Both the position numbers and the translations under genes were made by a program. Positions 1,084-19,009 of a stretch of 36,020 nt of DNA are shown here, one piece after another (the stretch's first letter is position 1; each line of letters begins with the position of its first letter). Origin of the DNA: a virus (lineage: Duplodnaviria; Caudoviricetes); IMG/VR virus record IMGVR_UViG_3300030433_001223, positions 1-36,020 of that record; one strand, given 5' to 3'. Below the pieces are notes generated by a model that saw only the letters and a list, made by a program, of their open reading frames with translations, had not been told where the DNA came from and did no database searches.

Positions 1084-1260
1084 TCATAACTTCCTTCTTC
1101 TCGTATGTATCAGCAATGCTTCCCATATCTCCTCCTGCAAACTCATCTCATCAACTTCCGCCAAACGCTGCAACTCTGCAAATACTTCCTTTCTCATAGG
1201 GTCTCTACCACAATTCAACACAAACTGCTTGGGCCATCCCTTCTTCTTAGAATATACCAT
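1084..1260 (-). CDS. Putative ribbon-helix-helix DNA-binding protein
   Basis: Start moved to ATG 1260 after a GGTGGTGGT RBS. KQFVLNC (strand), KEVFAELQRLAEVDE (helix A), MSLQEEIWEALLIHT (helix B). Confidence 0.6.
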   Translation of the reverse strand: MVYSKKKGWPKQFVLNCGRDPMRKEVFAELQRLAEVDEMSLQEEIWEALLIHTRRRKL

Positions 1261-1279
1261 ACCACCACCACCTAGGTAG

Positions 1280-1291
1280 GGACATATAACC
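1280..1291. promoter_or_regulatory. Palindromic operator copy GGACATATAACC
   Basis: 20 nt upstream of the RHH gene start; a further half-site ATATGACC at 1322-1329. Confidence 0.55.
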
Positions 1292-1419
1292 TTGCTGTTC
1301 ATAACTCCAAAAAAAAAAATAATATGACCCTCTTGATAGAAACCTTAGAAAATTTGTAGACAACCTCCCCTCAAGCACAAGGGGCGTACCCTTGACATGC
1401 TAGGCCAGCCTTAAGATGC

Positions 1420-1574
1420 GTGTGCTCATTGTTGCATTACCCGAGGATTATCGTCGAGGATTGCCGTGTTTTGTGCTATTCTAAACAAGATTTTGCACAC
1501 TGATTTAGAGATATTTTGATGTGTGCGAAAAGTTGGTGTGCTCAATGTTGCTTTTGTGCTTAAGTGTGCATAAA
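1420..1574. repeat. Cluster 1 of GTGTGC boxes
   Basis: GTGTGC at 1420, 1521, 1536, 1564; reverse copy GCACAC at 1495; variant TTGTGC at 1554. Non-coding. Confidence 0.8.
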
Positions 1575-1656
1575 TTTGCTATAGTAGAAGGATTTATTTT
1601 TTATGATAATTTTGTAAGTGTTTTGTGAAGTGCGTTCGGGAGTGCGTTCGGAGCTA

Positions 1657-1731
1657 GGATAATATGACCTAAGCACGGATTCTTGATTTTTCTTTATATA
1701 TGGTCCCGCTCCTGAATGATTGATAAGCATG
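1657..1731 (+). promoter_or_regulatory. Archaeal-type promoter and leader of the amidoligase gene
   Basis: Operator half-site ATATGACC 1662-1669, TATA box TTTATATA 1693-1700, leader TGATAAGC-ATG 1721-1731. Confidence 0.65.
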
Positions 1732-2640
1732 ACTTACAAGATAGGAATTGAAATTGAATGCAAGCTACAGAACGGCGTCTCCTTAGACGAAGTTCTCAGG
1801 AAAGTCGCAGCAGCAGGAATCACCTGCAATGACCAGCGCCACACCTCGAGCGGAAGGCTCAACGGATGTGAATGGAAATTAGTGTACGACGGTACAAGCT
1901 CCGACGACGGAGTCCCAATTTGGGAGTTTGTAAGTGAGCCTATCGTCAGTATGAAGAAGATAGAAAGAAGAGTTATCGCCATGACTTCAGTTCTTCAACA
2001 ATACTGCCGAGTTGACCGAAATACTGGCCTTCATATTCACTTTGATATCCTCGGAAAATATCACTTTAGAAGGCGTGTAGATACCTCTACTTATGAGGGG
2101 AAATTCAAGGCTCTAAGGAATAAGCCAGCACGTTTATTCTTAGCTGAGATTACAAGAAATATGCGATACTTTCAGCCTGTTTTTGATGCTTTTGTAAGCC
2201 CCTCGAGAAGAGGTAATTCATACTGTGCAACTCTCCCTAATCGTCAGCAAATTGATTCAAAACATGATTGCTTAATGTTCGCTAATAATGAGGGAGGATA
2301 CTTTCACGCTGACCCCGTTATCAGCCTAGGAGGAGGGAAATACAGAACCTTGAATATACAGAATATGGAAACAAGAGGAACCATCGAATACAGACAACAT
2401 CAAGGAACCTTAAACCCTACTAAGATTCTAAACTGGATTAAGCTATTGGAAAGGTTCACTACGAGAGCATGGGACAGAAGATACAAGAACCAAAACTGTG
2501 AAGACTTCGCCGTTGATGTTGATGGAATATTTGACTTCTTAGGATTCGGATACGATAACAGGAATATCCGAGAGTACTACCGAAGAAGGGCAGCTAGCTT
2601 CGGATTCGCAGCAATTGCCCTCAACAGTCGGCAATACTAG
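1729..2640 (+). CDS. Putative amidoligase (COOH-NH2 ligase, Amidoligase_2 family)
   Basis: Motifs GIEIE, DGT, EFVS, TGLHIHF, KYRTLN, TIEYRQHQGT in the canonical order. Start placed at the ATG after TGATAAGC. Confidence 0.9.
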   Translation: MTYKIGIEIECKLQNGVSLDEVLRKVAAAGITCNDQRHTSSGRLNGCEWKLVYDGTSSDDGVPIWEFVSEPIVSMKKIERRVIAMTSVLQQYCRVDRNTGLHIHFDILGKYHFRRRVDTSTYEGKFKALRNKPARLFLAEITRNMRYFQPVFDAFVSPSRRGNSYCATLPNRQQIDSKHDCLMFANNEGGYFHADPVISLGGGKYRTLNIQNMETRGTIEYRQHQGTLNPTKILNWIKLLERFTTRAWDRRYKNQNCEDFAVDVDGIFDFLGFGYDNRNIREYYRRRAASFGFAAIALNSRQY

Positions 2641-2658
2641 GCAAGCACGGAGAAGGTT

Positions 2659-2778
2659 ACTTAGTTGGTGATTCTAAAATCGCCATCTAAGTGCCAATAG
2701 AGCGAAGATAAGAGCCTCTATAGGTTTTCTAGGGTTACCATACCCTAGAGAATCTCAAACAAACTACGTAGATTTGAT
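2659..2778 (+). other. Cluster of stem-loops downstream of the amidoligase (terminator or structured RNA)
   Basis: 15-pair stem 2659-2692 with one mismatch and one G-U; perfect 8-bp stem TCTAGGGT/ACCCTAGA 2728-2749; smaller stems at 2713-2726 and 2755-2778. Confidence 0.5.
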
Positions 2779-2810
2779 AATTTTGATTAGAAAAGGCTAT
2801 AGGCCGATTT

Positions 2811-2826
2811 TGTTTAACCCATAGAA
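2811..2826 (+). repeat. TGTTTAACCCRTAGAA box, copy 1
   Basis: Identical 16-mer at 4194 and 6939, one-mismatch copy at 7802; 22 bp identical between 2808-2829 and 4191-4212. Confidence 0.9.
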
Positions 2827-2858
2827 ATCGTGATTTTTACTGTTTTTTACTACTTTTT

Positions 2859-2996
2859 GCACACATTTAGTACTGTGTGCGCAATCTTGCGTGTGCATTA
2901 TTCGGTTGTGTGCGTTATCTTGTGTGTGCTCTATTTTGTGTGTGTATTATTTTGTTGTGTGCATTATTATGAATTATATTTTATGTGTGCGTTATT
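2859..2996. repeat. Cluster 2: periodic iteron-like array of GTGTGC-N3-AT boxes
   Basis: Cores at 2875, 2891, 2908, 2924, 2940 (GTGTGT variant), 2957 with spacings 16,17,16,16,17; another at 2985 and a reverse copy at 2859. Confidence 0.9.
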
Positions 2997-3107
2997 ATGA
3001 TTTGTATTATTGATTATGTAAGTGAAATTTTACCCTGTCCAAAAACCTTAATCGGGATTCAAAAATGCGCTACAGAAACGCTTTAATTCTTGATTTCGTG
3101 CTTAAAT

Positions 3108-3162
3108 GGTCATATGAGCCTATTATATACCCTCTTGTATCTGTAAGGTTGTGATAAGCATG
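3108..3162 (+). promoter_or_regulatory. Operator, TATA box and leader of the small-ORF operon
   Basis: GGTCATATGAGC 3108-3119, TATTATATA 3121-3129, GTGATAAGC-ATG 3151-3162. Confidence 0.7.
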
Positions 3163-3411
3163 GAAACAAATACCAGAACACAAACACACGCAAGCAACCA
3201 GTTATCAACTGAAGGACAGCTTACTCTTAAAGGAGCTTTAGATGATTTACTATATCAAACTGAATTGATAGAATTAAGTGAACATAGTAGAGTGGCTTTA
3301 AACTTTGATTATAATGATAGAAAAAATTATCACGGTCAAAGAATGTATATCCAAGGTATCGAATATATGGCTAAAGCTGTAAGAGATATGCTAAGGAAAG
3401 AGGTGGAATAA
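3160..3411 (+). CDS. Hypothetical protein
   Basis: ORF track; start moved to the ATG after GTGATAAGC. Confidence 0.75.
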   Translation: METNTRTQTHASNQLSTEGQLTLKGALDDLLYQTELIELSEHSRVALNFDYNDRKNYHGQRMYIQGIEYMAKAVRDMLRKEVE

Positions 3412-3588
3412 ATGAATCCATTAGATAATATATGGGATTTTATAGTGGATTACAACATTGCTACTACTGAAGAATTGCAGTTAGTAACATGTATTAATGG
3501 ATATAACAAAACAGCACTTAATGATGTTATTGAAGTTAGAACGGGGTATCATAACATGGACCAATACTTAGAATGTGAGGGTGAATAA
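3412..3588 (+). CDS. 58-aa hypothetical protein
   Basis: MNPLDNIWDFIVDYNIATTEELQLVTCINGY...; GAGGTGG RBS, TAA-ATG abutment. Confidence 0.75.
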   Translation: MNPLDNIWDFIVDYNIATTEELQLVTCINGYNKTALNDVIEVRTGYHNMDQYLECEGE

Positions 3589-3756
3589 ATGTCTTCAGTA
3601 ATAGCCAAGCTAAGCCAAGAATTAACCAATACAATGACTTTAGAGGCCGTTAAAGCCGAGATAGAAGCATGGAGAGAGTACGGGCTTAATGACAGTAGAT
3701 TACAAGGGATGTGGATGCTTTACAGAATACTAGAACAAAAGTATGGGAGTGATTAA
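3589..3756 (+). CDS. 55-aa hypothetical protein
   Basis: MSSVIAKLSQELTNTMTLEAVK...; GGGTGA RBS, TAA-ATG abutment. Confidence 0.7.
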   Translation: MSSVIAKLSQELTNTMTLEAVKAEIEAWREYGLNDSRLQGMWMLYRILEQKYGSD

Positions 3757-3915
3757 ATGAATCAACAAGAATTAGAGAAGCTAGGGCGTGATATAGCTCA
3801 TAAGTGTCAATGGGTAGGGGAAGACATCTTTGTAGTCCTACAGGCTGCTTTAGAGGATGCTAATTTCCACAAAGAAAGAGAAGTATTAACTAAAGTATGG
3901 GAGGCTATACAATGA
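3757..3915 (+). CDS. 52-aa hypothetical protein
   Basis: MNQQELEKLGRDIAHKCQW...ALEDANFH...; GGAGTGAT RBS, TAA-ATG abutment. Confidence 0.75.
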   Translation: MNQQELEKLGRDIAHKCQWVGEDIFVVLQAALEDANFHKEREVLTKVWEAIQ

Positions 3916-4058
3916 ATAGAGTTTATAGTATAGAAGTGCCTAAAGATAAAAACCCCGTAAGTTTTTATTATGAAAAAACTATATTAGAAAAACATAGTTG
4001 GAAAGTATTGCATCGAATGTTTAACACTTCATTACTCATTATTGAAGTTGAAGATTAA
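3912..4058 (+). CDS. 48-aa hypothetical protein
   Basis: MNRVYSIEVPKDKNPVSF...; GGAGG RBS and ATGA overlap. Confidence 0.65.
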   Translation: MNRVYSIEVPKDKNPVSFYYEKTILEKHSWKVLHRMFNTSLLIIEVED

Positions 4059-4193
4059 ACGGTAGACATTGCGCACACGCCGGCATACTGGCAAGCATAT
4101 TTGATTTCGATGTTCTTTGATTCATGTGTGCGCAATGTTGAGAATAGTGCTGGTCATCACTATAAACTGACCATTTTACATTTATTTAGTTTT

Positions 4194-4209
4194 TGTTTAA
4201 CCCATAGAA
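4194..4209 (+). repeat. TGTTTAACCCRTAGAA box, copy 2
   Basis: Exact match to 2811-2826, preceded by a T-run. Confidence 0.9.
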
Positions 4210-4227
4210 ATCAAAGAAAAGGGCTAA

Positions 4228-4305
4228 CAAAAGCTTTAAATAGAGTGGGACATATGTCCTATTATCAGAAGGCAACTTTTGACTAAATAAAAAGTGATAA
4301 ACATG
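4228..4305 (+). promoter_or_regulatory. Promoter, perfect palindromic operator and leader of the GATase operon
   Basis: Purine-rich BRE-like stretch, TTTAAATA 4235-4242, GGACATATGTCC 4248-4259, AAAAGTGATAAAC-ATG 4290-4305. Confidence 0.75.
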
Positions 4306-5226
4306 TGCGGAATAGGAGGATATTACCAAACAGGTAATACAGAAAACGCCCCACGGTGGGCAAAGCCAGCCCTCAGGAAAATGTGGAATAGTCTACAATC
4401 CCGAGGAACCGATGCTTCAGGCATTGCGTATGAAAGTCCTAGTGGTATTAGGCACGTAAAGACAGACAAACCTGCTTACGAACTCAGTAGTTTAGGTATG
4501 AACCTAGCTTTTGGTATGAACCGAACACCTAGATGGGTTATGTTACATACTAGAGCTTCAACTCATGGTAAACCAGAACGTAACAGAAACAATCACCCCT
4601 TAATGGGAGGTAAGCTTGCATTATGTCATAATGGTGTGGTTTACAATAAAGATAATGTCTTACGTAAGTATAATACTTCACCAAAGCGTGAGGTAGATAC
4701 TGAGGCCATTCTTGTGGCATTAAAGAACGGTGGTATAGATGCAGTTGCAGGGCATGTAGAAGGCTCTATGTCTATTTCATGGGCCAAGGGTAAGACTATG
4801 TATCTTTGGACTAATGGATTGTCTCCTTTAGTTATTGGTGAACTATTCAATGGGGACTTTATGTATTCATCAACTGATAATCATCTTATGACTACAGGGC
4901 TGAGATTCAGAAATATCTTTGATGCAAAACACGGACACCTCTACAAGTTTACGCCCACAGGTATGACTGTACACAAAACTCAGTTGAGAAAAATGCAGCA
5001 ACCTATGTATTCATGGAGAGACTTAAGCAAGAAAACACACACAAAGCAAAAGGGAACCAGACAACCCAGTCTGGTCCCAAAGCGGACTCATGCTGAACGT
5101 GTGCGCAATTTTGATGAATATGATGAAGACAGTGTGCGCTATCTTGATGATATAGATGTAACATGGGAAGCAGTCTACGGAGACTGGCGTTCATGGTCTA
5201 AAAAATCTAAGGGGTTCAGACAATGA
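4303..5226 (+). CDS. Class II (Ntn) glutamine amidotransferase
   Basis: N-terminal MCGI (Cys nucleophile after Met removal fixes the start at 4303), RGTDASG, HTRAST, NNHP, HNG, VDTE motifs. Confidence 0.92.
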   Translation: MCGIGGYYQTGNTENAPRWAKPALRKMWNSLQSRGTDASGIAYESPSGIRHVKTDKPAYELSSLGMNLAFGMNRTPRWVMLHTRASTHGKPERNRNNHPLMGGKLALCHNGVVYNKDNVLRKYNTSPKREVDTEAILVALKNGGIDAVAGHVEGSMSISWAKGKTMYLWTNGLSPLVIGELFNGDFMYSSTDNHLMTTGLRFRNIFDAKHGHLYKFTPTGMTVHKTQLRKMQQPMYSWRDLSKKTHTKQKGTRQPSLVPKRTHAERVRNFDEYDEDSVRYLDDIDVTWEAVYGDWRSWSKKSKGFRQ

Positions 5227-6002
5227 AAGACAGACTACAAACTATAGATATAGCTCACCAAGGAACCACGGCAGAGTGTTTAGTAATGGCTAAATTAGCA
5301 AGTTTGCGTAATGAGGTAATTAGAACACCAGAGCATCACGTATATGATTTACAAAATTTAAAAAATGATTGTAAAATAGAAGTTAAAAGTACAAACATCG
5401 ATTCAAGAGAGGGTCCAAATGTAGCATTTAGATTATCAGAAAGACAATTTAATAGTAATGATATAGATTATATAGTTGCATTGGTATTCCATGAAACAGA
5501 CAATATATTTAATTTCGATGCTTATATCGTACCCCATAAGGTAGTAAAGTATATATCAAGTGTAAGTCGATTTGGAGGGACTAGAAGAGCAGGTTATGGA
5601 GATTATAATGAGAGGTCGTTCACATTTTCAATAGATGGGACTCATACAAGACAACCATATGTAGCAAACTTAGGTAAAAACAAATGGAACTTATTAACAT
5701 CTAAAAAAACCACCATGACAAGGAATAAAAATAAACTTATCAAACAAATGATAACTAAATTCAAACGCTGGTATCTTATAGATAATCCAAATGTAAAACA
5801 TATAACTAAAAAGACTAAAACTGGACATAAAAATTGGTATAAATGTATTCATTGTCAAAATAAACCTGTCACTAGGGCAGACATGAGAACACATTTAGAA
5901 AGAGTTCACGGATTAGATATAATGAAAGATAACAAGTCTCAAGAAGTGAAACATTACAAAAGAGTTAGGAAAAACGGGAGATTTGTAAAAGGGAGAGAGT
6001 AA
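5223..6002 (+). CDS. PD-(D/E)XK-type nuclease with C-terminal C2H2 zinc finger
   Basis: G..AE helix, YDL...IEVKS catalytic signature; CIHC-x13-H-x4-H near the C terminus. Confidence 0.7.
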   Translation: MKDRLQTIDIAHQGTTAECLVMAKLASLRNEVIRTPEHHVYDLQNLKNDCKIEVKSTNIDSREGPNVAFRLSERQFNSNDIDYIVALVFHETDNIFNFDAYIVPHKVVKYISSVSRFGGTRRAGYGDYNERSFTFSIDGTHTRQPYVANLGKNKWNLLTSKKTTMTRNKNKLIKQMITKFKRWYLIDNPNVKHITKKTKTGHKNWYKCIHCQNKPVTRADMRTHLERVHGLDIMKDNKSQEVKHYKRVRKNGRFVKGRE

Positions 6003-6181
6003 TGATACAAAAATGGAAAGACTATTACACAGATAGTTGTGATAATTGTGGCGACAACCTAACTAAGTTAGGTGTAGTATATGTAATAAATAAATCAATG
6101 GGTTTGTGTGCGTTATGTTACGACAACGCTGAGATTTATGTAATACATGAAGATATGTTAGCAAAAAAGGAGAAAGAATGA
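6002..6181 (+). CDS. 59-aa CxxC-CxxC zinc-finger protein
   Basis: MIQKWKDYYTDSCDNCGDNL...GLCALCYDN...; TAATG and ATGA overlaps. Confidence 0.7.
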   Translation: MIQKWKDYYTDSCDNCGDNLTKLGVVYVINKSMGLCALCYDNAEIYVIHEDMLAKKEKE

Positions 6182-6375
6182 AACAAGAAAGAGATAAGAG
6201 AGGAGAGAAAATAGCAGAAGACATCATAGAGCTTACTGATTCGCTAGATAACGCACACGATTTAGATATTGCGTGGATTCGAATCACTGAAGCTTTACGA
6301 TACCTTAGCGCAAAAGATACAATGTATAAGACAAAAAGGGATATAGAAAATGCCAAGAAAGAAGAAAGAAACTAG
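6178..6375 (+). CDS. Hypothetical helical protein
   Basis: ORF track, coupled to the upstream gene, AGGAG RBS. Confidence 0.7.
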   Translation: MKQERDKRGEKIAEDIIELTDSLDNAHDLDIAWIRITEALRYLSAKDTMYKTKRDIENAKKEERN

Positions 6376-6574
6376 CTTAGTAGAACGTAAGTACCTATAC
6401 GAACTATGGGAATTAGATATAGAGGGTCTTAAAGAGCATTTATTCGCACTAAATGACGCCCTTTTGTATCATAGAGAAAAGGTAGCTGATGGTGAACGTT
6501 ACAAATATCGTATTGAACACATCATGAAACTAAAACAATGGCTGGATAGAGAAGACAAGATAATAAACGAATAG
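6350..6574 (+). CDS. Hypothetical protein
   Basis: ORF track, overlaps the previous gene, last of the operon. Confidence 0.7.
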   Translation: MPRKKKETSLVERKYLYELWELDIEGLKEHLFALNDALLYHREKVADGERYKYRIEHIMKLKQWLDREDKIINE

Positions 6575-6605
6575 CGCACACATTTATATTCAGTTCCTTA
6601 TAGTA

Positions 6606-6677
6606 GGGGATAGGATAAGAGAAGTTTTGTAAGTCATGTTTATCACTTTTGTTTTATAATTTTTCTCTTATCCCCCC
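6606..6677 (+). ncRNA. Candidate antisense hairpin sRNA targeting early-operon leaders
   Basis: Stem GGATAAGAGAAG 6613-6624 / TTTCTCTTATCC 6662-6673 plus GGGG/CCCC; inner 6625-6650 is complementary to start regions at 1721, 3151, 4290 and 6987; TATA-like TTTATATT at 6583-6590. Confidence 0.6.
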
Positions 6678-6690
6678 AAATAATGCACAC

Positions 6691-6933
6691 ATGAAAAAAA
6701 TCGAATGGTTAAATGGCACTACATATAATATTGAATCGCCTAAAAGATTCATAGAACTAAGACAGATGAGACACCCTTTTTGTGAAGAAGTAGATAATCA
6801 ACAATATATGAGAGGTGTGCGCAATATTCACGTTGAGTTTTACGGTGTAGATAAAGATGCTATAGATATTACTTCAGAAGATGCGTTTATTCGGTCTTTT
6901 GTTGCTTTAGGATTAGTAAAAATTTTAGAATAG
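6691..6933 (+). CDS. Hypothetical protein (probably leaderless)
   Basis: MKKIEWLNGTTYNIESP...; start moved to ATG 6691, directly after AATAATGCACAC, with TTTTATAAT at 6652-6660. Confidence 0.75.
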   Translation: MKKIEWLNGTTYNIESPKRFIELRQMRHPFCEEVDNQQYMRGVRNIHVEFYGVDKDAIDITSEDAFIRSFVALGLVKILE

Positions 6934-6938
6934 TTTTT

Positions 6939-6999
6939 TGTTTAACCCATAGAAGTTGTTAAATAGGGCAGGTCATATTGCCTTTTGGTGATAAACATG
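6939..6999 (+). promoter_or_regulatory. Box copy 3, TATA, operator and leader of the last plus-strand operon
   Basis: TGTTTAACCCATAGAA 6939-6954, TTAAATAG 6959-6966, GGTCATATTGCC 6971-6982, GGTGATAAAC-ATG 6987-6999. Confidence 0.75.
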
Positions 7000-7203
7000 A
7001 TAATAAAATCACTCAAAATAAAACTAGGGGCTACTAGGCCCACGGCTAGACAATATGAATCAGTGAGAGCTGATATAGAATTAGACATCACGATGGATGA
7101 AAAAACATTTAGTGAAGATTGGAAACGAATCAGAAACAAAGCTAAGATAATGTTACTAGAGGCTATGGCTGACGCTGAGAAGGGGGTTCAACATGGCAAC
7201 TAA
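6997..7203 (+). CDS. Hypothetical protein
   Basis: ORF track; start moved to the ATG after GGTGATAAAC. Confidence 0.75.
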   Translation: MIIKSLKIKLGATRPTARQYESVRADIELDITMDEKTFSEDWKRIRNKAKIMLLEAMADAEKGVQHGN

Positions 7204-7432
7204 AATTGTAAGTGTCAACTCTTTGACAGTTGCTAAACGATGGCTTAAACAGATGAAAGAAACATACCACCCTAATCATCATAAAAGATTAGGTATATGG
7301 GAAAGACCAAGGCAATATCATGGTGTAAAAAGCTACGGATATAATGATAGTATGATTTACATTGTAGGTCATTCAAAAGCTGTAGAACCTAAAATAAGTC
7401 ATCTTGGTAAAAGGATTGACCATGAATTGTAA
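7193..7432 (+). CDS. Hypothetical basic protein
   Basis: ORF track, overlapping neighbours. Confidence 0.7.
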   Translation: MATKIVSVNSLTVAKRWLKQMKETYHPNHHKRLGIWERPRQYHGVKSYGYNDSMIYIVGHSKAVEPKISHLGKRIDHEL

Positions 7433-7499
7433 ACATGAAGCTCAGATATGTGGGGATAATGGTTGGGAATGTATTATATGTGGTAAGCTAGTAGATTAA
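7422..7499 (+). CDS. 25-aa CxH-CxxC microprotein
   Basis: MNCKHEAQICGDNGWECIICGKLVD. Confidence 0.55.
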   Translation: MNCKHEAQICGDNGWECIICGKLVD

Positions 7500-7500
7500 C

Positions 7501-7608
7501 ATGAGCATTACTGAATATGATGAAGAAGGCTGTCCTCAATGTGGGTCAGAATTGGATTGGCTTTATATTTGTTATAGATGTGGAGAATGCTATGAACCCA
7601 ATCCATGA
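7501..7608 (+). CDS. 35-aa CPxCG zinc-finger microprotein
   Basis: MSITEYDEEGCPQCGSELDWLYICYRCGECYEPNP; ATGA overlap with the next gene. Confidence 0.7.
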   Translation: MSITEYDEEGCPQCGSELDWLYICYRCGECYEPNP

Positions 7609-7787
7609 CGAACTACATACTGAAATGTCCTAAGTGTTACACAACAAGAGCAGGCGAAAGCAGGTACAAGTCTTGGAAATGCTTTCGCTGTGGCTATGTT
7701 ATGAATAAAAAGAATACTAAAATTCAAGCAGAAACAATAAATGTTAAAGAAAACCAAGACTTTATCTCTTTTTTAGACCAAAAATAA
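7605..7787 (+). CDS. Zinc-ribbon protein
   Basis: CPKC...CFRCG; followed by a T-run. Confidence 0.75.
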   Translation: MTNYILKCPKCYTTRAGESRYKSWKCFRCGYVMNKKNTKIQAETINVKENQDFISFLDQK

Positions 7788-7801
7788 TTTTTTGTGAATG
7801 A

Positions 7802-7817
7802 TGTTTAACCCGTAGAA
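7802..7817 (+). repeat. TGTTTAACCCRTAGAA box, copy 4
   Basis: TGTTTAACCCGTAGAA, one difference from the other copies. Confidence 0.85.
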
Positions 7818-7991
7818 GGTGTATTTTAGACAGACAGACACCTTCATTTCCACTGGAACTTTTATTTATATAAGTAAGAATATATCTTATATAACTAATA
7901 AGCCGCCGTACCTCTCTAAAAACTATAAAAAATTTGTAGAGACTTTACTAAATAGTTCCAGTGGAAGTAAAGGTGTGTGTCACTGCCTAAA
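7815..7991. other. Nested inverted-repeat region between convergent transcription units
   Basis: Perfect 13-bp IR 7848-7860/7954-7966 within a longer imperfect stem; inner IRs 7866-7874/7886-7894 and 7913-7918/7937-7942; alternative 8-bp stem 7815-7822/7838-7845. Confidence 0.7.
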
Positions 7992-9047
7992 GCTAGTTAT
8001 CAATACGTCTGAGGTTAACGCATTGTTACCTACTTCTATTATAGTAGATAGTTCTTCATTAATCATTATCTTATAACCTACTACTGGTAAAAATTCTACT
8101 TTCTTTAACGCAGGTGTTCTTAGTTCTACAATAGAACCTAGAGGCAACCATTCACCATTATTGATTGTAATTCTATATCCTTTAGTTGGATTCTTAAATT
8201 GTTCTACTACTAATCTTCCTACTTTTTCTAATACATCAATTCTACTTGTAAGGTATTCAACTTTCCTAGACATTACACCGTACTTAGCTATAGAACCCTC
8301 ATCATTATATGTAAATGATAAATCTCTATTAGATGAACTGACTACTGTACAACTGTTTACCATACCTACTGAGGTATAGTTAGCTAACAAACCATCAGAA
8401 ATAATATTAGACTCATCTAATGAAATAGTCAAGTCAGCTTTAACATTGTTGTGCAAGTGGTCTGGTTGGAATACTTCAAAATTTTTACCAGATTTTATAG
8501 CATAATAATATGGTAAATAAGAATGTAAAGGATGGTCATCATCTGTAGTAATGTCTACCATAAAGTTTATACAATTATCAATAAAATCTTTTCGAGTAGC
8601 ATATCCACTAAAGTTCATAGTGTCATCTAGTATTATACCACTACCTTGCGTCATTTTACTAATAGAAGTATTTTTATAATTAGCAACTTCAGCGATTGCC
8701 ATATACAAATCCATGCCTTGAAAGTCACCTTGTTTAAAATTAATAATTTCACTGTTAGCTAATTCAGTAATATAATCGTAAGCTACAAAACTAAAATTAC
8801 CTATTGATGGATTTATAACTCTTATAATACCAACAAACTCTTTATTTGTAATAAGGTCACCTTTACCATATTTAATTATTACCTCAGCTCCGATTCTAAC
8901 TTTCTCTAAAGCATCGACAGAAGTACATAAACAAGTAGCAGACCTTGCAGAATTTACTTTAGCATCAATATTTAATTGTGTAACAAATGGAAAAGGCTCA
9001 CCATCTATTGTAACATCAATTACTAATTCATTAGAAGTTGCTGACAT
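7980..9047 (-). CDS. Putative baseplate hub / tail tip protein
   Basis: 355 aa, beta-rich, EFVGII and SIAKYGV patterns typical of hub proteins; last gene of the tail module. Confidence 0.65.
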   Translation of the reverse strand: MSATSNELVIDVTIDGEPFPFVTQLNIDAKVNSARSATCLCTSVDALEKVRIGAEVIIKYGKGDLITNKEFVGIIRVINPSIGNFSFVAYDYITELANSEIINFKQGDFQGMDLYMAIAEVANYKNTSISKMTQGSGIILDDTMNFSGYATRKDFIDNCINFMVDITTDDDHPLHSYLPYYYAIKSGKNFEVFQPDHLHNNVKADLTISLDESNIISDGLLANYTSVGMVNSCTVVSSSNRDLSFTYNDEGSIAKYGVMSRKVEYLTSRIDVLEKVGRLVVEQFKNPTKGYRITINNGEWLPLGSIVELRTPALKKVEFLPVVGYKIMINEELSTIIEVGNNALTSDVLITSFRQ

Positions 9048-16996: not shown

Positions 16997-17379
16997 CAGA
17001 GTCCACCTTTGCGCATCATTTGCGCTGTTCTTGTTGCTGCTTGTCCTACCTGTACTTCAGGACTGACAAACGCTTTTACTACTAATGCTTTAATCATTGA
17101 TAACAATATACTTACAGCCATAACAAACATAAGGAATCCATTGTATAACCAAGCGACTCCCCATATTGCCATACCGTATTCTGTTACTACTGAATCATAA
17201 TAATAACCAATATACAGGCCAATTCCACCTAATGCAAAGCCTATACCCATAAGCCATACACATCTCTTGAACCAAACCCATTCTATATATCTACAAAACT
17301 CTACGTCTTGTTGGCCTCCTGCACCCATTGTGCTAGGATACCTGCCAGTGCTAAACAACATATTTCTTATGAATCTCAT
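16996..17379 (-). CDS. Two-TM membrane protein
   Basis: Hydrophobic segments VWLMGIGFALGGIGLYIGYYY and AIWGVAWLYNGFLMFVMAVSILLSMI. Confidence 0.8.
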   Translation of the reverse strand: MRFIRNMLFSTGRYPSTMGAGGQQDVEFCRYIEWVWFKRCVWLMGIGFALGGIGLYIGYYYDSVVTEYGMAIWGVAWLYNGFLMFVMAVSILLSMIKALVVKAFVSPEVQVGQAATRTAQMMRKGGL

Positions 17380-18200
17380 GGTCTCACCACATCTACGTAT
17401 GCATTCTTTTGCGAATCCATCTTCTCATACATGTCACGCTTAAACTCCCTAGAGAGTTGATAAGCGACCTCGTATCCGATTGGTTCCGCTCCATCAGGCA
17501 TAGGAATCCATTTTGGATGATAAGTATATATACTTATCCTACGAAAGTTTGGCTTGAAATCTAACTTGTCATCGTGAAACTCAATGTAGGCTTTCTGTGC
17601 AAAACCTTCCTCATCTACTAATGATTCTAAACTGTGCTGAGAAAGTACGGCATTAACTGTATTTTCTATGTTTTTAACAGGAACCAATTTAGAAATAGAA
17701 ACAGGCGTCTCCCATCTGAATATGTCGGAAGGTGTCAAATTTTCTACGACAGAGTGGAGCAATTCATCACAGGAGACAATCGCCTCTGACATGTCAAATG
17801 TTTTAAGCCTTACGCCTTTTAGACTAAAATCTTTGACTTTACCTTTGATATGTCCTGCTTCATTAGATATTTTTATCCAATCATCTATAGCAAACTCTGT
17901 TTTGTATGCTACTGTAAGAAAAGATAATGCTCCGTTGACAGGACTGTACTGGGAAAAGGCAGCGTAAGTAAGTGCTGATACGCCTACTATATACTCGGTC
18001 CGTGCTAATAACCCACTATACATTAAGAGACCAATCCCGAAAACAATGGCCCCTAAAACTCCAAATACTTGCGCTGCTGCTTTTCCTTGTAAACTTCTTA
18101 TTTTATAATCTGTAAATGCTGACTTTTTTGCTTTAGCTACCGCTCCAGAAACTCCTAACGCTACTGCGATAAACCATGCAAAAACTAAGCCCTCATCCAC
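17376..18200 (-). CDS. mscS: MscS-family mechanosensitive channel homologue
   Basis: Three N-terminal hydrophobic helices, then FAIDDWIKI...GKVKDFSLKGVRLKTFD...IVSCDELLHSVVENLT matching the MscS middle beta-domain pattern, then an alpha/beta C-terminal domain. Confidence 0.75.
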   Translation of the reverse strand: MDEGLVFAWFIAVALGVSGAVAKAKKSAFTDYKIRSLQGKAAAQVFGVLGAIVFGIGLLMYSGLLARTEYIVGVSALTYAAFSQYSPVNGALSFLTVAYKTEFAIDDWIKISNEAGHIKGKVKDFSLKGVRLKTFDMSEAIVSCDELLHSVVENLTPSDIFRWETPVSISKLVPVKNIENTVNAVLSQHSLESLVDEEGFAQKAYIEFHDDKLDFKPNFRRISIYTYHPKWIPMPDGAEPIGYEVAYQLSREFKRDMYEKMDSQKNAYVDVVRP

Positions 18201-18684
18201 TATTTTTTCCCTTCTGTGCTATCTTATCAATGTGCGGTCCTTGTTCCGCTTCTAACAACTCACCAGTAGTTGGATTAATATATCCACCAGCTTGTGCTGG
18301 CATAGGCATTGGTTGTTGCTGTTGTTGTTGGTATTGCTGATATGGCATCATGTTAGGTGGGATTGGTTGCCCTACATGACCGTCTCGATTCATGTCCCAG
18401 CCTGTTCTGTTTTCCATATAGTTCATAGCATTACTGAACATTCCTTGATTTTGATAACCCGAAGGTTTTTTCTTTCTCTCTGCAAATTCTTCTAAATCTT
18501 GCGAATCTGCTATTGTGGAGAGTATGGTATATGTGAAAGCACCACTTACCGAACCAAACCAAAGGGCGTCATTGTATGCCATGTTGCCCACATACATTAA
18601 AGTGAATGCGTTAGCTATGAAAACTAACAAGGCACTCAACCTGTTGTATGATTGTTTTATTTTGTGCTTAATCGTTTCTTCCAT
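18193..18684 (-). CDS. Two-TM membrane protein with Q/P/M-rich tail
   Basis: Two N-terminal hydrophobic helices, DMNRDG loop, YQQYQQQQQQPMPMP tract. Confidence 0.8.
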   Translation of the reverse strand: MEETIKHKIKQSYNRLSALLVFIANAFTLMYVGNMAYNDALWFGSVSGAFTYTILSTIADSQDLEEFAERKKKPSGYQNQGMFSNAMNYMENRTGWDMNRDGHVGQPIPPNMMPYQQYQQQQQQPMPMPAQAGGYINPTTGELLEAEQGPHIDKIAQKGKNSG

Positions 18685-19009
18685 TCTCGATTTCCTCTTT
18701 TGCTCTTAGCGTCACAAACCGTGCAGTGTTGTAATTCCACGGCCTGTCTGCTTTTGTCTTGATACCTGCATCGTTTAAATACTTTGCTATACCGCCATAC
18801 GTATAGCCATTTTCTCTTAAAAATACCATTTTTTTACACACTAACCACTCCTTGACAGATGCGCCAAACCTAACAGACCGATACGGGCGTTTGCGCTGGC
18901 TTTTTTCTGCGCTAAAGTTACTTTGAGTAGATGAACCCATGCCATACCATAAATCACCTTTAAACGGCTTCTGTGCCGCTTTTAGTCCTAATTCAGATTT
19001 TACTCTCAT
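18668..19009 (-). CDS. Stand-alone Recombinase-type DNA-binding domain (no catalytic resolvase domain)
   Basis: GYTYGGIAKYLNDAGIKTKADRPWNYNTARFV fits the IA..LN..GI.T....W signature of serine-recombinase Recombinase domains; only 113 aa. Confidence 0.7.
   Translation of the reverse strand: MRVKSELGLKAAQKPFKGDLWYGMGSSTQSNFSAEKSQRKRPYRSVRFGASVKEWLVCKKMVFLRENGYTYGGIAKYLNDAGIKTKADRPWNYNTARFVTLRAKEEIENGRND

Follow-up and report, generated by a model that had tools for sequence, protein, structure and literature searches.

Genome setting and virus type

The DNA analysed here (the window) is a stretch of 36,020 nt that makes up a whole assembly, with ~138 bases repeated at its ends, and is therefore a near-complete, circular 36-kb genome. 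Judged by gene content and a family scan, the minus strand encodes the terminase, portal, and head and tail proteins, and a block of small genes occupies the plus strand at 1.7–7.8 kb, including an amidoligase and a glutamine amidotransferase (GATase). The transcription units of this block are taken to be early from their position and gene content. Among the 48 ORFs scanned there was no match to polymerase, primase or helicase families, and, short of a full integrase, only a partial recombinase domain was recognised, in a 113-aa ORF (18668–19009, minus strand). This ORF lies inside the virion block, as does a small mechanosensitive-channel domain protein (17376–18200, minus strand). A weak Rfam match to a microRNA precursor at 7825–7991 (29 bits, against a cut-off of 85) suggests a long inverted repeat where the early and late blocks converge. 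The motif GTGTGC/GCACAC is dense in the non-coding stretches 1300–1730 and 2640–3160 (12–13 per kb, versus 0.7 in the late region), which are possible origin or factor sites.

In a phage collection, the capsid, portal and ORF 15053 proteins matched archaeal viruses in 9/9, 8/8 and 10/10 records respectively, at 22–31% identity across the three, with capsid and portal matching HVTV-1/HCTV-1. Terminase matches were mixed, the best being Bacteroides phages and phiCh1/phiH (~25% identity). Together with the archaeal promoter and Shine–Dalgarno (SD) signals described below, these matches agree with the archaeal-type virus proposed in an earlier note on this DNA. The host is likely archaeal and marine, because of the archaeal-virus matches and because many of the relatives are Tara-named contigs, and it probably belongs to the marine Euryarchaeota/Thermoplasmatota. 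No relative turned up in two scans of GTDB genomes.

Vyasavirus (Satyavativiridae) is described, in the covered parts of two reports, as carrying an amidoligase and a GATase, lacking a DNA polymerase and having a Druskaviridae-like capsid (PMC11706807; PMC13108676). Likened by description, the two viruses have amidoligase and GATase in common, whereas the genome is 87 kb there and 36 kb here; the Vyasavirus text covered contains no hairpin RNA like the one described below (PMC11706807; PMC13108676). By analogy with this virus and its gene pair, a Poseidoniales host may be supposed.

A hairpin with its own promoter signals

Within the early block, a hairpin lies behind a TATA box and directly upstream of an 80-aa ORF (Table 1). 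The plus-strand fold has a predicted energy of -26.8 kcal/mol (z -4.8 to -5.4), and none of 200 shuffles was as stable, which confirms the 12-pair stem reported earlier. The claim that the core UGUUUAUCAC sits in the loop holds for 10 of its 12 bases, which are apical, and fails for the first two (CA), which close the loop; the part that pairs with amidoligase codons 2–4 sits in the weak inner stem.

Table 1. Coordinates of the hairpin, its neighbouring features and its four predicted targets in the window
Feature	Position	Strand	Remarks
GCACAC box	6576..6581	+	just 5' of TATA box, at BRE position; putative role
TATA box of the RNA's predicted promoter	6583..6590	+	invariant T/A columns in alignments
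GGGG able to pair with 6674–6677	6606..6609	+	5' of predicted start
Predicted regulatory RNA domain	6612..6677	+	predicted start A6612
5' arm of 12-bp closing stem	6613..6624	+	from fold
Antisense region	6625..6650	+	core CATGTTTATCAC at 6635–6646; anti-SD part TATCAC invariant
3' arm of 12-bp closing stem	6662..6673	+	from fold
80-aa ORF without SD, directly 3' of hairpin	6691..6933	+	co-occurs with hairpin in 44/44 scored loci
Junction motif TGTTTAACCCATAG	6939..6952	+	candidate terminator or factor site
Target 1: leader and codons 1–4 of amidoligase gene (1729–2640)	1721..1741	+	TATA 1693–1700; predicted start 1722; operator 1658–1669
Target 2: leader and start of ORF 3160–3411	3151..3163	+	TATA 3122–3129; predicted start 3151; operator 3108–3119
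Target 3: leader and start of GATase gene (4303–5226)	4290..4305	+	TATA 4235–4242; predicted start 4264; operator 4248–4259
Target 4: leader and start of ORF 6997–7203	6987..7001	+	TATA 6958–6965; predicted start 6987; operator 6971–6982

A TATA-like box precedes the stem by 27–29 nt in all 30 distinct homologs, and a pyrimidine–purine step lies 27–29 nt past the first TATA base in 26 of them, +29 having been imposed in the other four. By the archaeal spacing rule from TATA box to transcription start, the RNA most likely begins at A6612; in 30/30 the first base of the stem falls at +1 to +3 from the start so predicted, at which the fold had been begun. The flanking GTGTGC boxes to which the earlier note drew attention (6576 and 6685) are present, as is the TATA box at 6583–6590, but the two flanking boxes are not constant: the one at 6576 reads CACAC/CACAA in group-1 relatives and differs in several group-3 relatives, and L081, L085, L128 and group 3 have no GCACAC box ahead of ORF 6691.

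Since the GGGG at 6606–6609 is upstream of the predicted start, it would pair only in a read-through or alternative-start RNA. Compensated versions of this pairing with 6674–6677 nevertheless occur (GAGG/CCTC in L092, GAG/CTC in L064), and such compensated outer pairs 5' of the predicted start have no explanation in an antisense-RNA reading of the hairpin, against which they count. Just 5' of the predicted start, the beginning of the stem is repeated as a short G-rich copy (6606–6609, and in the L076–L124 group); when it is included in the group-3 consensus fold, the register shifts and part of the TATCAC core becomes paired, so that a read-through RNA might carry a masked loop.

Across the 30 distinct homologs, neither a U-tract terminator nor a CCA is conserved after the stem, and the bases that follow vary. 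The hairpin most likely opens a unit that extends through ORF 6691 to the junction motif at 6939. Because the stem is not followed by a terminator, the active RNA may be a processed, cut-out one of 60–70 nt, or it may be the 5' domain of the ORF 6691 mRNA, comparable to c4 in the c4-icd-ant operon. A single small RNA (sRNA) from about 6606 had been proposed; its antisense action in trans is retained here, with the likely start moved to 6612 and a free-standing 75-nt sRNA as only one possible form. The structure of the ORF 6691 product was modelled with confidence (pLDDT 95). It had no Pfam or PHROG family, its Atlas clusters were unnamed, and its model gave no clear match to PDB structures, with none by Foldseek and a best Z of 4.1 by VIA, and one uncharacterised viral match.

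Pairing with four early gene starts

The loop is complementary to the ribosome-binding site (RBS) and start codon of the first gene of four early units. Positions 6625–6645 pair with the amidoligase start (1721–1741) over 21 bp with 2 G-U, 6635–6650 with the GATase start (4290–4305) over 16 Watson–Crick pairs, 6633–6647 with ORF 6997 (6987–7001) over 15 bp with 2 G-U, and 6634–6646 with ORF 3160 (3151–3163) over 13 bp with 2 G-U. All four had been claimed, the 14 bp with 1 G-U at 6987–7000 given earlier being the same run as the 15 bp listed here. The shared target leader reads GTGATAA(A/G)CATG. One more run of 15 bp with 2 G-U is found at 5342–5356, inside ORF 5223 and away from any start.

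By duplex energy the four targets take ranks 1–4 of 54 start regions, and when the costs of opening both molecules are included, a comparison that had been suggested as a check, they remain ranks 1–4 of 52 (-17.7, -15.1, -12.4 and -11.6 kcal/mol, the next being -8.1). When 5,538 tiled 26-mers were compared by a pairing rule of at least 12 bp with at most 2 G-U, four starts were reached only by the loop and, trivially, by the reverse complement of one target leader.

The hairpin is on the same strand as its targets, at a distance of 0.3–4.9 kb, and each target has its own TATA box. From a TATA spacing of 29 nt, transcription is predicted to start at the first paired base of targets 2 and 4 and no more than one base away from it in target 1, the predicted leaders being 7–10 nt in three targets. 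The GATase leader opens with a small GCAA-tetraloop hairpin (4264–4283), the target site, as judged by eye, staying single-stranded.

Putative operators and junction motifs

A palindrome, GGNCATATGNCC, occurs in the window at 1007, 1280, 1658, 3108, 4248, 6971 and 32507, that is, at early promoters, around the divergent gene 1084–1260 and before the portal block. Scored with up to 2 mismatches (background, 2 in 24.4 kb), it was found at the promoters of ORF 6997 (30/30), GATase (12/12), amidoligase (8/10) and ORF 3160 (6/8), and at the RNA's own promoter in 0/30. From this distribution it is likely a repressor operator. The sites around the divergent gene lie on both sides of a conserved 58-aa protein (1087–1260, minus strand), whose strand-helix-helix pattern, seen by eye, makes it a candidate ribbon-helix-helix-like repressor; Pfam gave no support for this fold, and the monomer model is low-confidence at the N terminus. 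The junction motif TGTTTAACCCATAG has four plus-strand copies, at 2811, 4194, 6939 and 7802, all between early units, and in relatives that lack the hairpin it appears as a pair 66–67 nt apart.

Conservation and co-loss of the hairpin

Relatives were collected with GATase and ORF 6997 as queries, which yielded sets of 11, 70 and 14 loci, with redundancy present; one locus, L060, is 100% identical to the window in its matched proteins. After removal of L143, which is without an ORF 6997 match, 83 loci remained from the 70- and 14-locus sets. The hairpin, ORF 6691 and a GTG(A/G)T leader on ORF 6997 occur together in 44 of the 83, and 22 are without all three; in those 22, the leader of ORF 6997, there an internal gene, is AGGAG-like. 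The remaining 17 had <420 nt upstream, too short to score, and two of them (L081, L104) still display the hairpin. Profile searches of the 22 hairpin-less loci found no hairpin homolog, and amidoligase was seen in none of them, though many do not extend far enough to contain it. A single evolutionary event probably accounts for the 44/22 split, with the hairpin-less loci forming one clade. A DNA pattern scan of IMG/VR returned 42 loci, of which 4 are true relatives.

The window and its relatives provide 30 distinct hairpins in the same genomic place, with 22 distinct stems of 6–13 bp, scored sequence by sequence and not from an alignment. Plus-strand z scores run from -2.2 to -7.9, the plus strand folds more strongly than the minus strand in 25/30, and in the predictions the core's ATCA is left unpaired in 30/30. 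Because the 3' arms of group 1 do not align in register, RNAalifold returned no pairs for that group's alignment; for group 3 it chose a shifted register in which 1/12 pairs is doubly changed.

Covariation of loop and leaders

The earlier note had proposed a trans-acting, multi-target antisense RNA and had named compensatory change in related genomes as a test of it; loop and leaders do covary across the relatives. In L048 a G-to-A change makes the loop read against GTGATAAATATG, and the leaders of amidoligase, GATase and ORF 6997 all end ATATG, with L063, L045 and L090 representing the G-U intermediate of this change. An altered amidoligase start is met in L047 by a new, perfect 13-bp loop match, altered ORF 6997 spacers are matched by the loop in L076 and L120, and between L112 and L114 a 1-nt insertion in the leader is matched by 1 nt in the loop. 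L119, whose amidoligase and GATase leaders are AGGAG-type, has a second, CU-rich loop module that makes 17 and 14 perfect pairs with them, and a different version of the module in L123/L124 matches their own GATase leader over 13 bp. About eight separate covariation events were counted, without the use of a tree.

Cognate duplexes are on average predicted to be stronger than non-cognate ones at the amidoligase (-23.5 versus -15.1 kcal/mol, n=10), GATase (-22.9 versus -19.7 kcal/mol, n=12) and ORF 6997 (-19.1 versus -16.4 kcal/mol, n=28), and within group 3 alone (-17.9 versus -14.3, n=7); permutation of cognate pairing gave p values of 5e-5 to 1e-3, which ignore relatedness. The group-1 RNA is predicted to bind the L119 amidoligase leader at about -9 and its own at about -24 kcal/mol. 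The match is not uniform. The L046 loop also tracks an altered amidoligase start, with the helix broken, and the L046 GATase leader would bind the window's RNA better than its own (-29 versus -21); the L076 RNA would bind the L104 leader as well as its own; the cognate pairs of L104, L095, L064 and L110 at ORF 6997 are weak (-13.6 to -14.7); in L043/L061 the amidoligase pairing is interrupted between SD and AUG; and the leader at the ORF 3160 position of L048 pairs over just 9 bp. L049 and L053 have AGGAG-type GATase leaders on contigs that end before the hairpin position, and their RNA is predicted to carry the CU-rich module.

Little weight attaches to one argument made before, that target differences run from A to G and so are tolerated as wobble pairs. 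In 21 distinct pairs there are 12 wobble-compatible transitions, 0 opposite and 6 transversions, and the asymmetry is uninformative because spacer positions are A/C only, where every transition is wobble-compatible; GUGGU suits 16S pairing as well.

Alternative explanations

Complementarity to the RBS and start codon of four first genes, covarying among relatives, points to a plus-strand RNA that likely pairs in trans and blocks translation initiation. The same inverted match could instead be the ordinary SD and start codon of a minus-strand micro-ORF (MTYK...), an alternative raised in the earlier note. GTGAT is a normal euryarchaeal SD, and the minus-strand ATG is kept in group-1 relatives, but the product varies in length between 3 and 25 or more codons and has no sequence in common, no ATG is found there in 4/4 group-3 homologs tested, and ~29 nt upstream on the minus strand there is a G run and no TATA box. 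As the micro-ORF is not conserved, and an SD consensus cannot account for the 21-nt or AGGAG-module matches, this explanation is barely credible. Control in the reverse direction, with the hairpin as a sensor in the 5' UTR of ORF 6691 whose processing or translation is altered when early mRNAs bind the loop, is unlikely. It draws on the constant company of hairpin and ORF 6691 (44/44 scored loci), on the start of this SD-less ORF lying 10–20 nt past the stem with no terminator between, and on covariation being symmetric, which gives no direction; yet predicted folds leave the start of ORF 6691 outside the stem, and the paired sites fall exactly on the partners' SD and AUG, a placement unneeded for a mere trigger.

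It is also very improbable that the leaders carry a protein-bound tag, as proposed for the start-associated sequences (SAS) of cluster K mycobacteriophages, with the inverted copy serving as a DNA site or decoy that inverted-repeat conversion keeps in step with them. The perfect 13–17 nt matches in L047 and L119 do resemble recent copying, and the cluster K precedent, in the part of its description covered, also has one reverse copy (PMC3203893). The matches here are, however, gene-specific and extend into coding sequence (amidoligase codons 2–4 or more), group-3 loops contain two unrelated modules for different leaders, and in every case a covarying stem, preceded by a plus-strand TATA box, leaves the copy exposed; copying may account for the origin of the loop, not for its retention.

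Comparison with known systems

No description of the hairpin RNA was found in the literature searched. It may be among the unnamed candidates of Fremin et al. 2023; in the part of that study covered, the core and four contig ids are absent (PMC10690425).

The earlier note likened the RNA to C4 of phage P1 and to the similar CI RNA of P4. Both of these carry a tRNA-like end with CCA for RNase P processing. According to the part covered of the source, C4 of P1/P7 (immI) is a viral RNA at an operon 5' end whose loop pairs with separate viral mRNA sites and which backs a protein repressor (PMC8198154), and to this extent the two would work alike. C4 differs in its bacterial host and in having its targets in its own c4-icd-ant operon, where here there are four separately promoted units. 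Membership of the C4/CI family was rejected: Rfam gave no match at the hairpin (window 1200–8100, E up to 5; in 5 relatives at gathering, 0), the targets are outside the RNA's own operon, no antirepressor family was matched among the scanned ORFs, and the CCA after the stem is not conserved.

Among archaeal RNAs, sRNA162 of Methanosarcina mazei masks the RBS of a trans-encoded mRNA, in the covered parts of its description (PMC3510493; PMC3432209), and the present RNA would do likewise. It too is encoded apart from its targets, has short, accessible complementarity over SD and start codon, shows compensatory change across relatives and has its own promoter signals on the right strand (TATA box and spacing, read from sequence). 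The differences are that sRNA162 is cellular and acts through an unstructured linker on one trans target, while the viral RNA has four self targets and a hairpin loop; likeness in sequence was judged via Rfam alone. Control at the RNA level is on record for the archaeal viruses phiH1, SSV1 (T3E) and HFTV1, where, in the parts covered, the RNAs given as antisense are encoded opposite their target and overlap it (PMC6210493, 10.64898/2026.06.17.732947, 10.64898/2026.09.13.751334). Here the RNA is on the same strand and apart, and a cis antisense RNA was ruled out, there being no opposite-strand overlap with the targets. The covered part of a review of phage sRNAs gives bacterial examples only (PMC12197685).

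The SAS of cluster K mycobacteriophages is, in the part covered, a repeated RBS tag of selected genes in 11–19 copies, and in four K1 phages a single further copy lies reversed and apart from gene starts (PMC3203893). A tag at the RBS of selected genes plus a reverse copy is thus common to both, whereas the SAS host is bacterial and the covered text reports no hairpin or covariation (PMC3203893); membership was rejected, the shared leader GTGATAA(A/G)CATG being unlike the 13-bp SAS consensus (PMC3203893). In Adephagia, part of the single reverse SAS (L144:28683–28695, between genes 92 and 93) falls within the loop of a predicted hairpin (z -2.3 versus base shuffles), so that it is possible, as a lead only, that it too is an anti-start RNA. 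In the 31 kb of Pixie examined, no reverse SAS occurs at up to 2 mismatches.

Proposed mechanism and role

The pairings, the conserved closing stem with its exposed UAUCAC core, the covariation and the co-loss are all established at the level of sequence. They are very probably explained by loop-initiated pairing in trans over the SD and AUG of each unit's first gene, which would block initiation, act in a polar manner downstream and reinforce a protein repressor. Transcription would proceed from the TATA box at 6583 with a start at about A6612, and the stem would lock the 5' end of the RNA and so make it stable. The loop would nucleate on the GUGAU SD, after which the weak inner stem would unzip to give a duplex of 13–21 bp across SD, spacer and AUG; with leaders of only 7–10 nt in three targets, nearly the whole leader would be covered. 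Downstream genes that abut or overlap the first would be silenced by polarity. A repressor at GGNCATATGNCC would shut the target promoters while the RNA likely stays on, because its promoter is without GGNCATATGNCC, and the result would be a double lock.

The RNA would accumulate after infection, end the early phase and silence later-arriving kin with matching leaders. Early-phase shut-off together with exclusion of like viruses is the preferred role, on a roughly even balance against a lasting carrier state. The invariant UAUCAC core may dampen SD-led host mRNAs as well. A broader proposal, quite conceivable though falling somewhat short of probable, is that the hairpin represents, as type member, a class of rewritable anti-start RNAs in archaeal viruses, in which a fixed promoter–stem scaffold carries a loop recopied from the virus's own gene starts, silences all early operons and splits co-infecting relatives into mutually insensitive immunity groups, as the weak predicted pairing of the group-1 RNA with the L119 amidoligase leader would illustrate.

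Significance

As judged from its homologs, the hairpin is a real, conserved and coevolving anti-start RNA element. The anti-start logic may explain the start tags of other phages, and for the SAS of cluster K mycobacteriophages it suggests a hypothesis that can be tested. If the reading is true, the relatives offer ready orthogonal RNA/leader pairs, testable and usable as translation repressors in a tractable archaeon, and their natural series of compensatory alleles would show that very short, SD-led leaders matter for initiation. To our knowledge, next to nothing has been learned of how viruses of marine archaea control their genes, since the hosts are uncultured. RNA control in archaeal viruses is, in the literature found, of the cis-antisense kind, and a trans-acting RNA with four targets would extend phage-style riboregulation to them.
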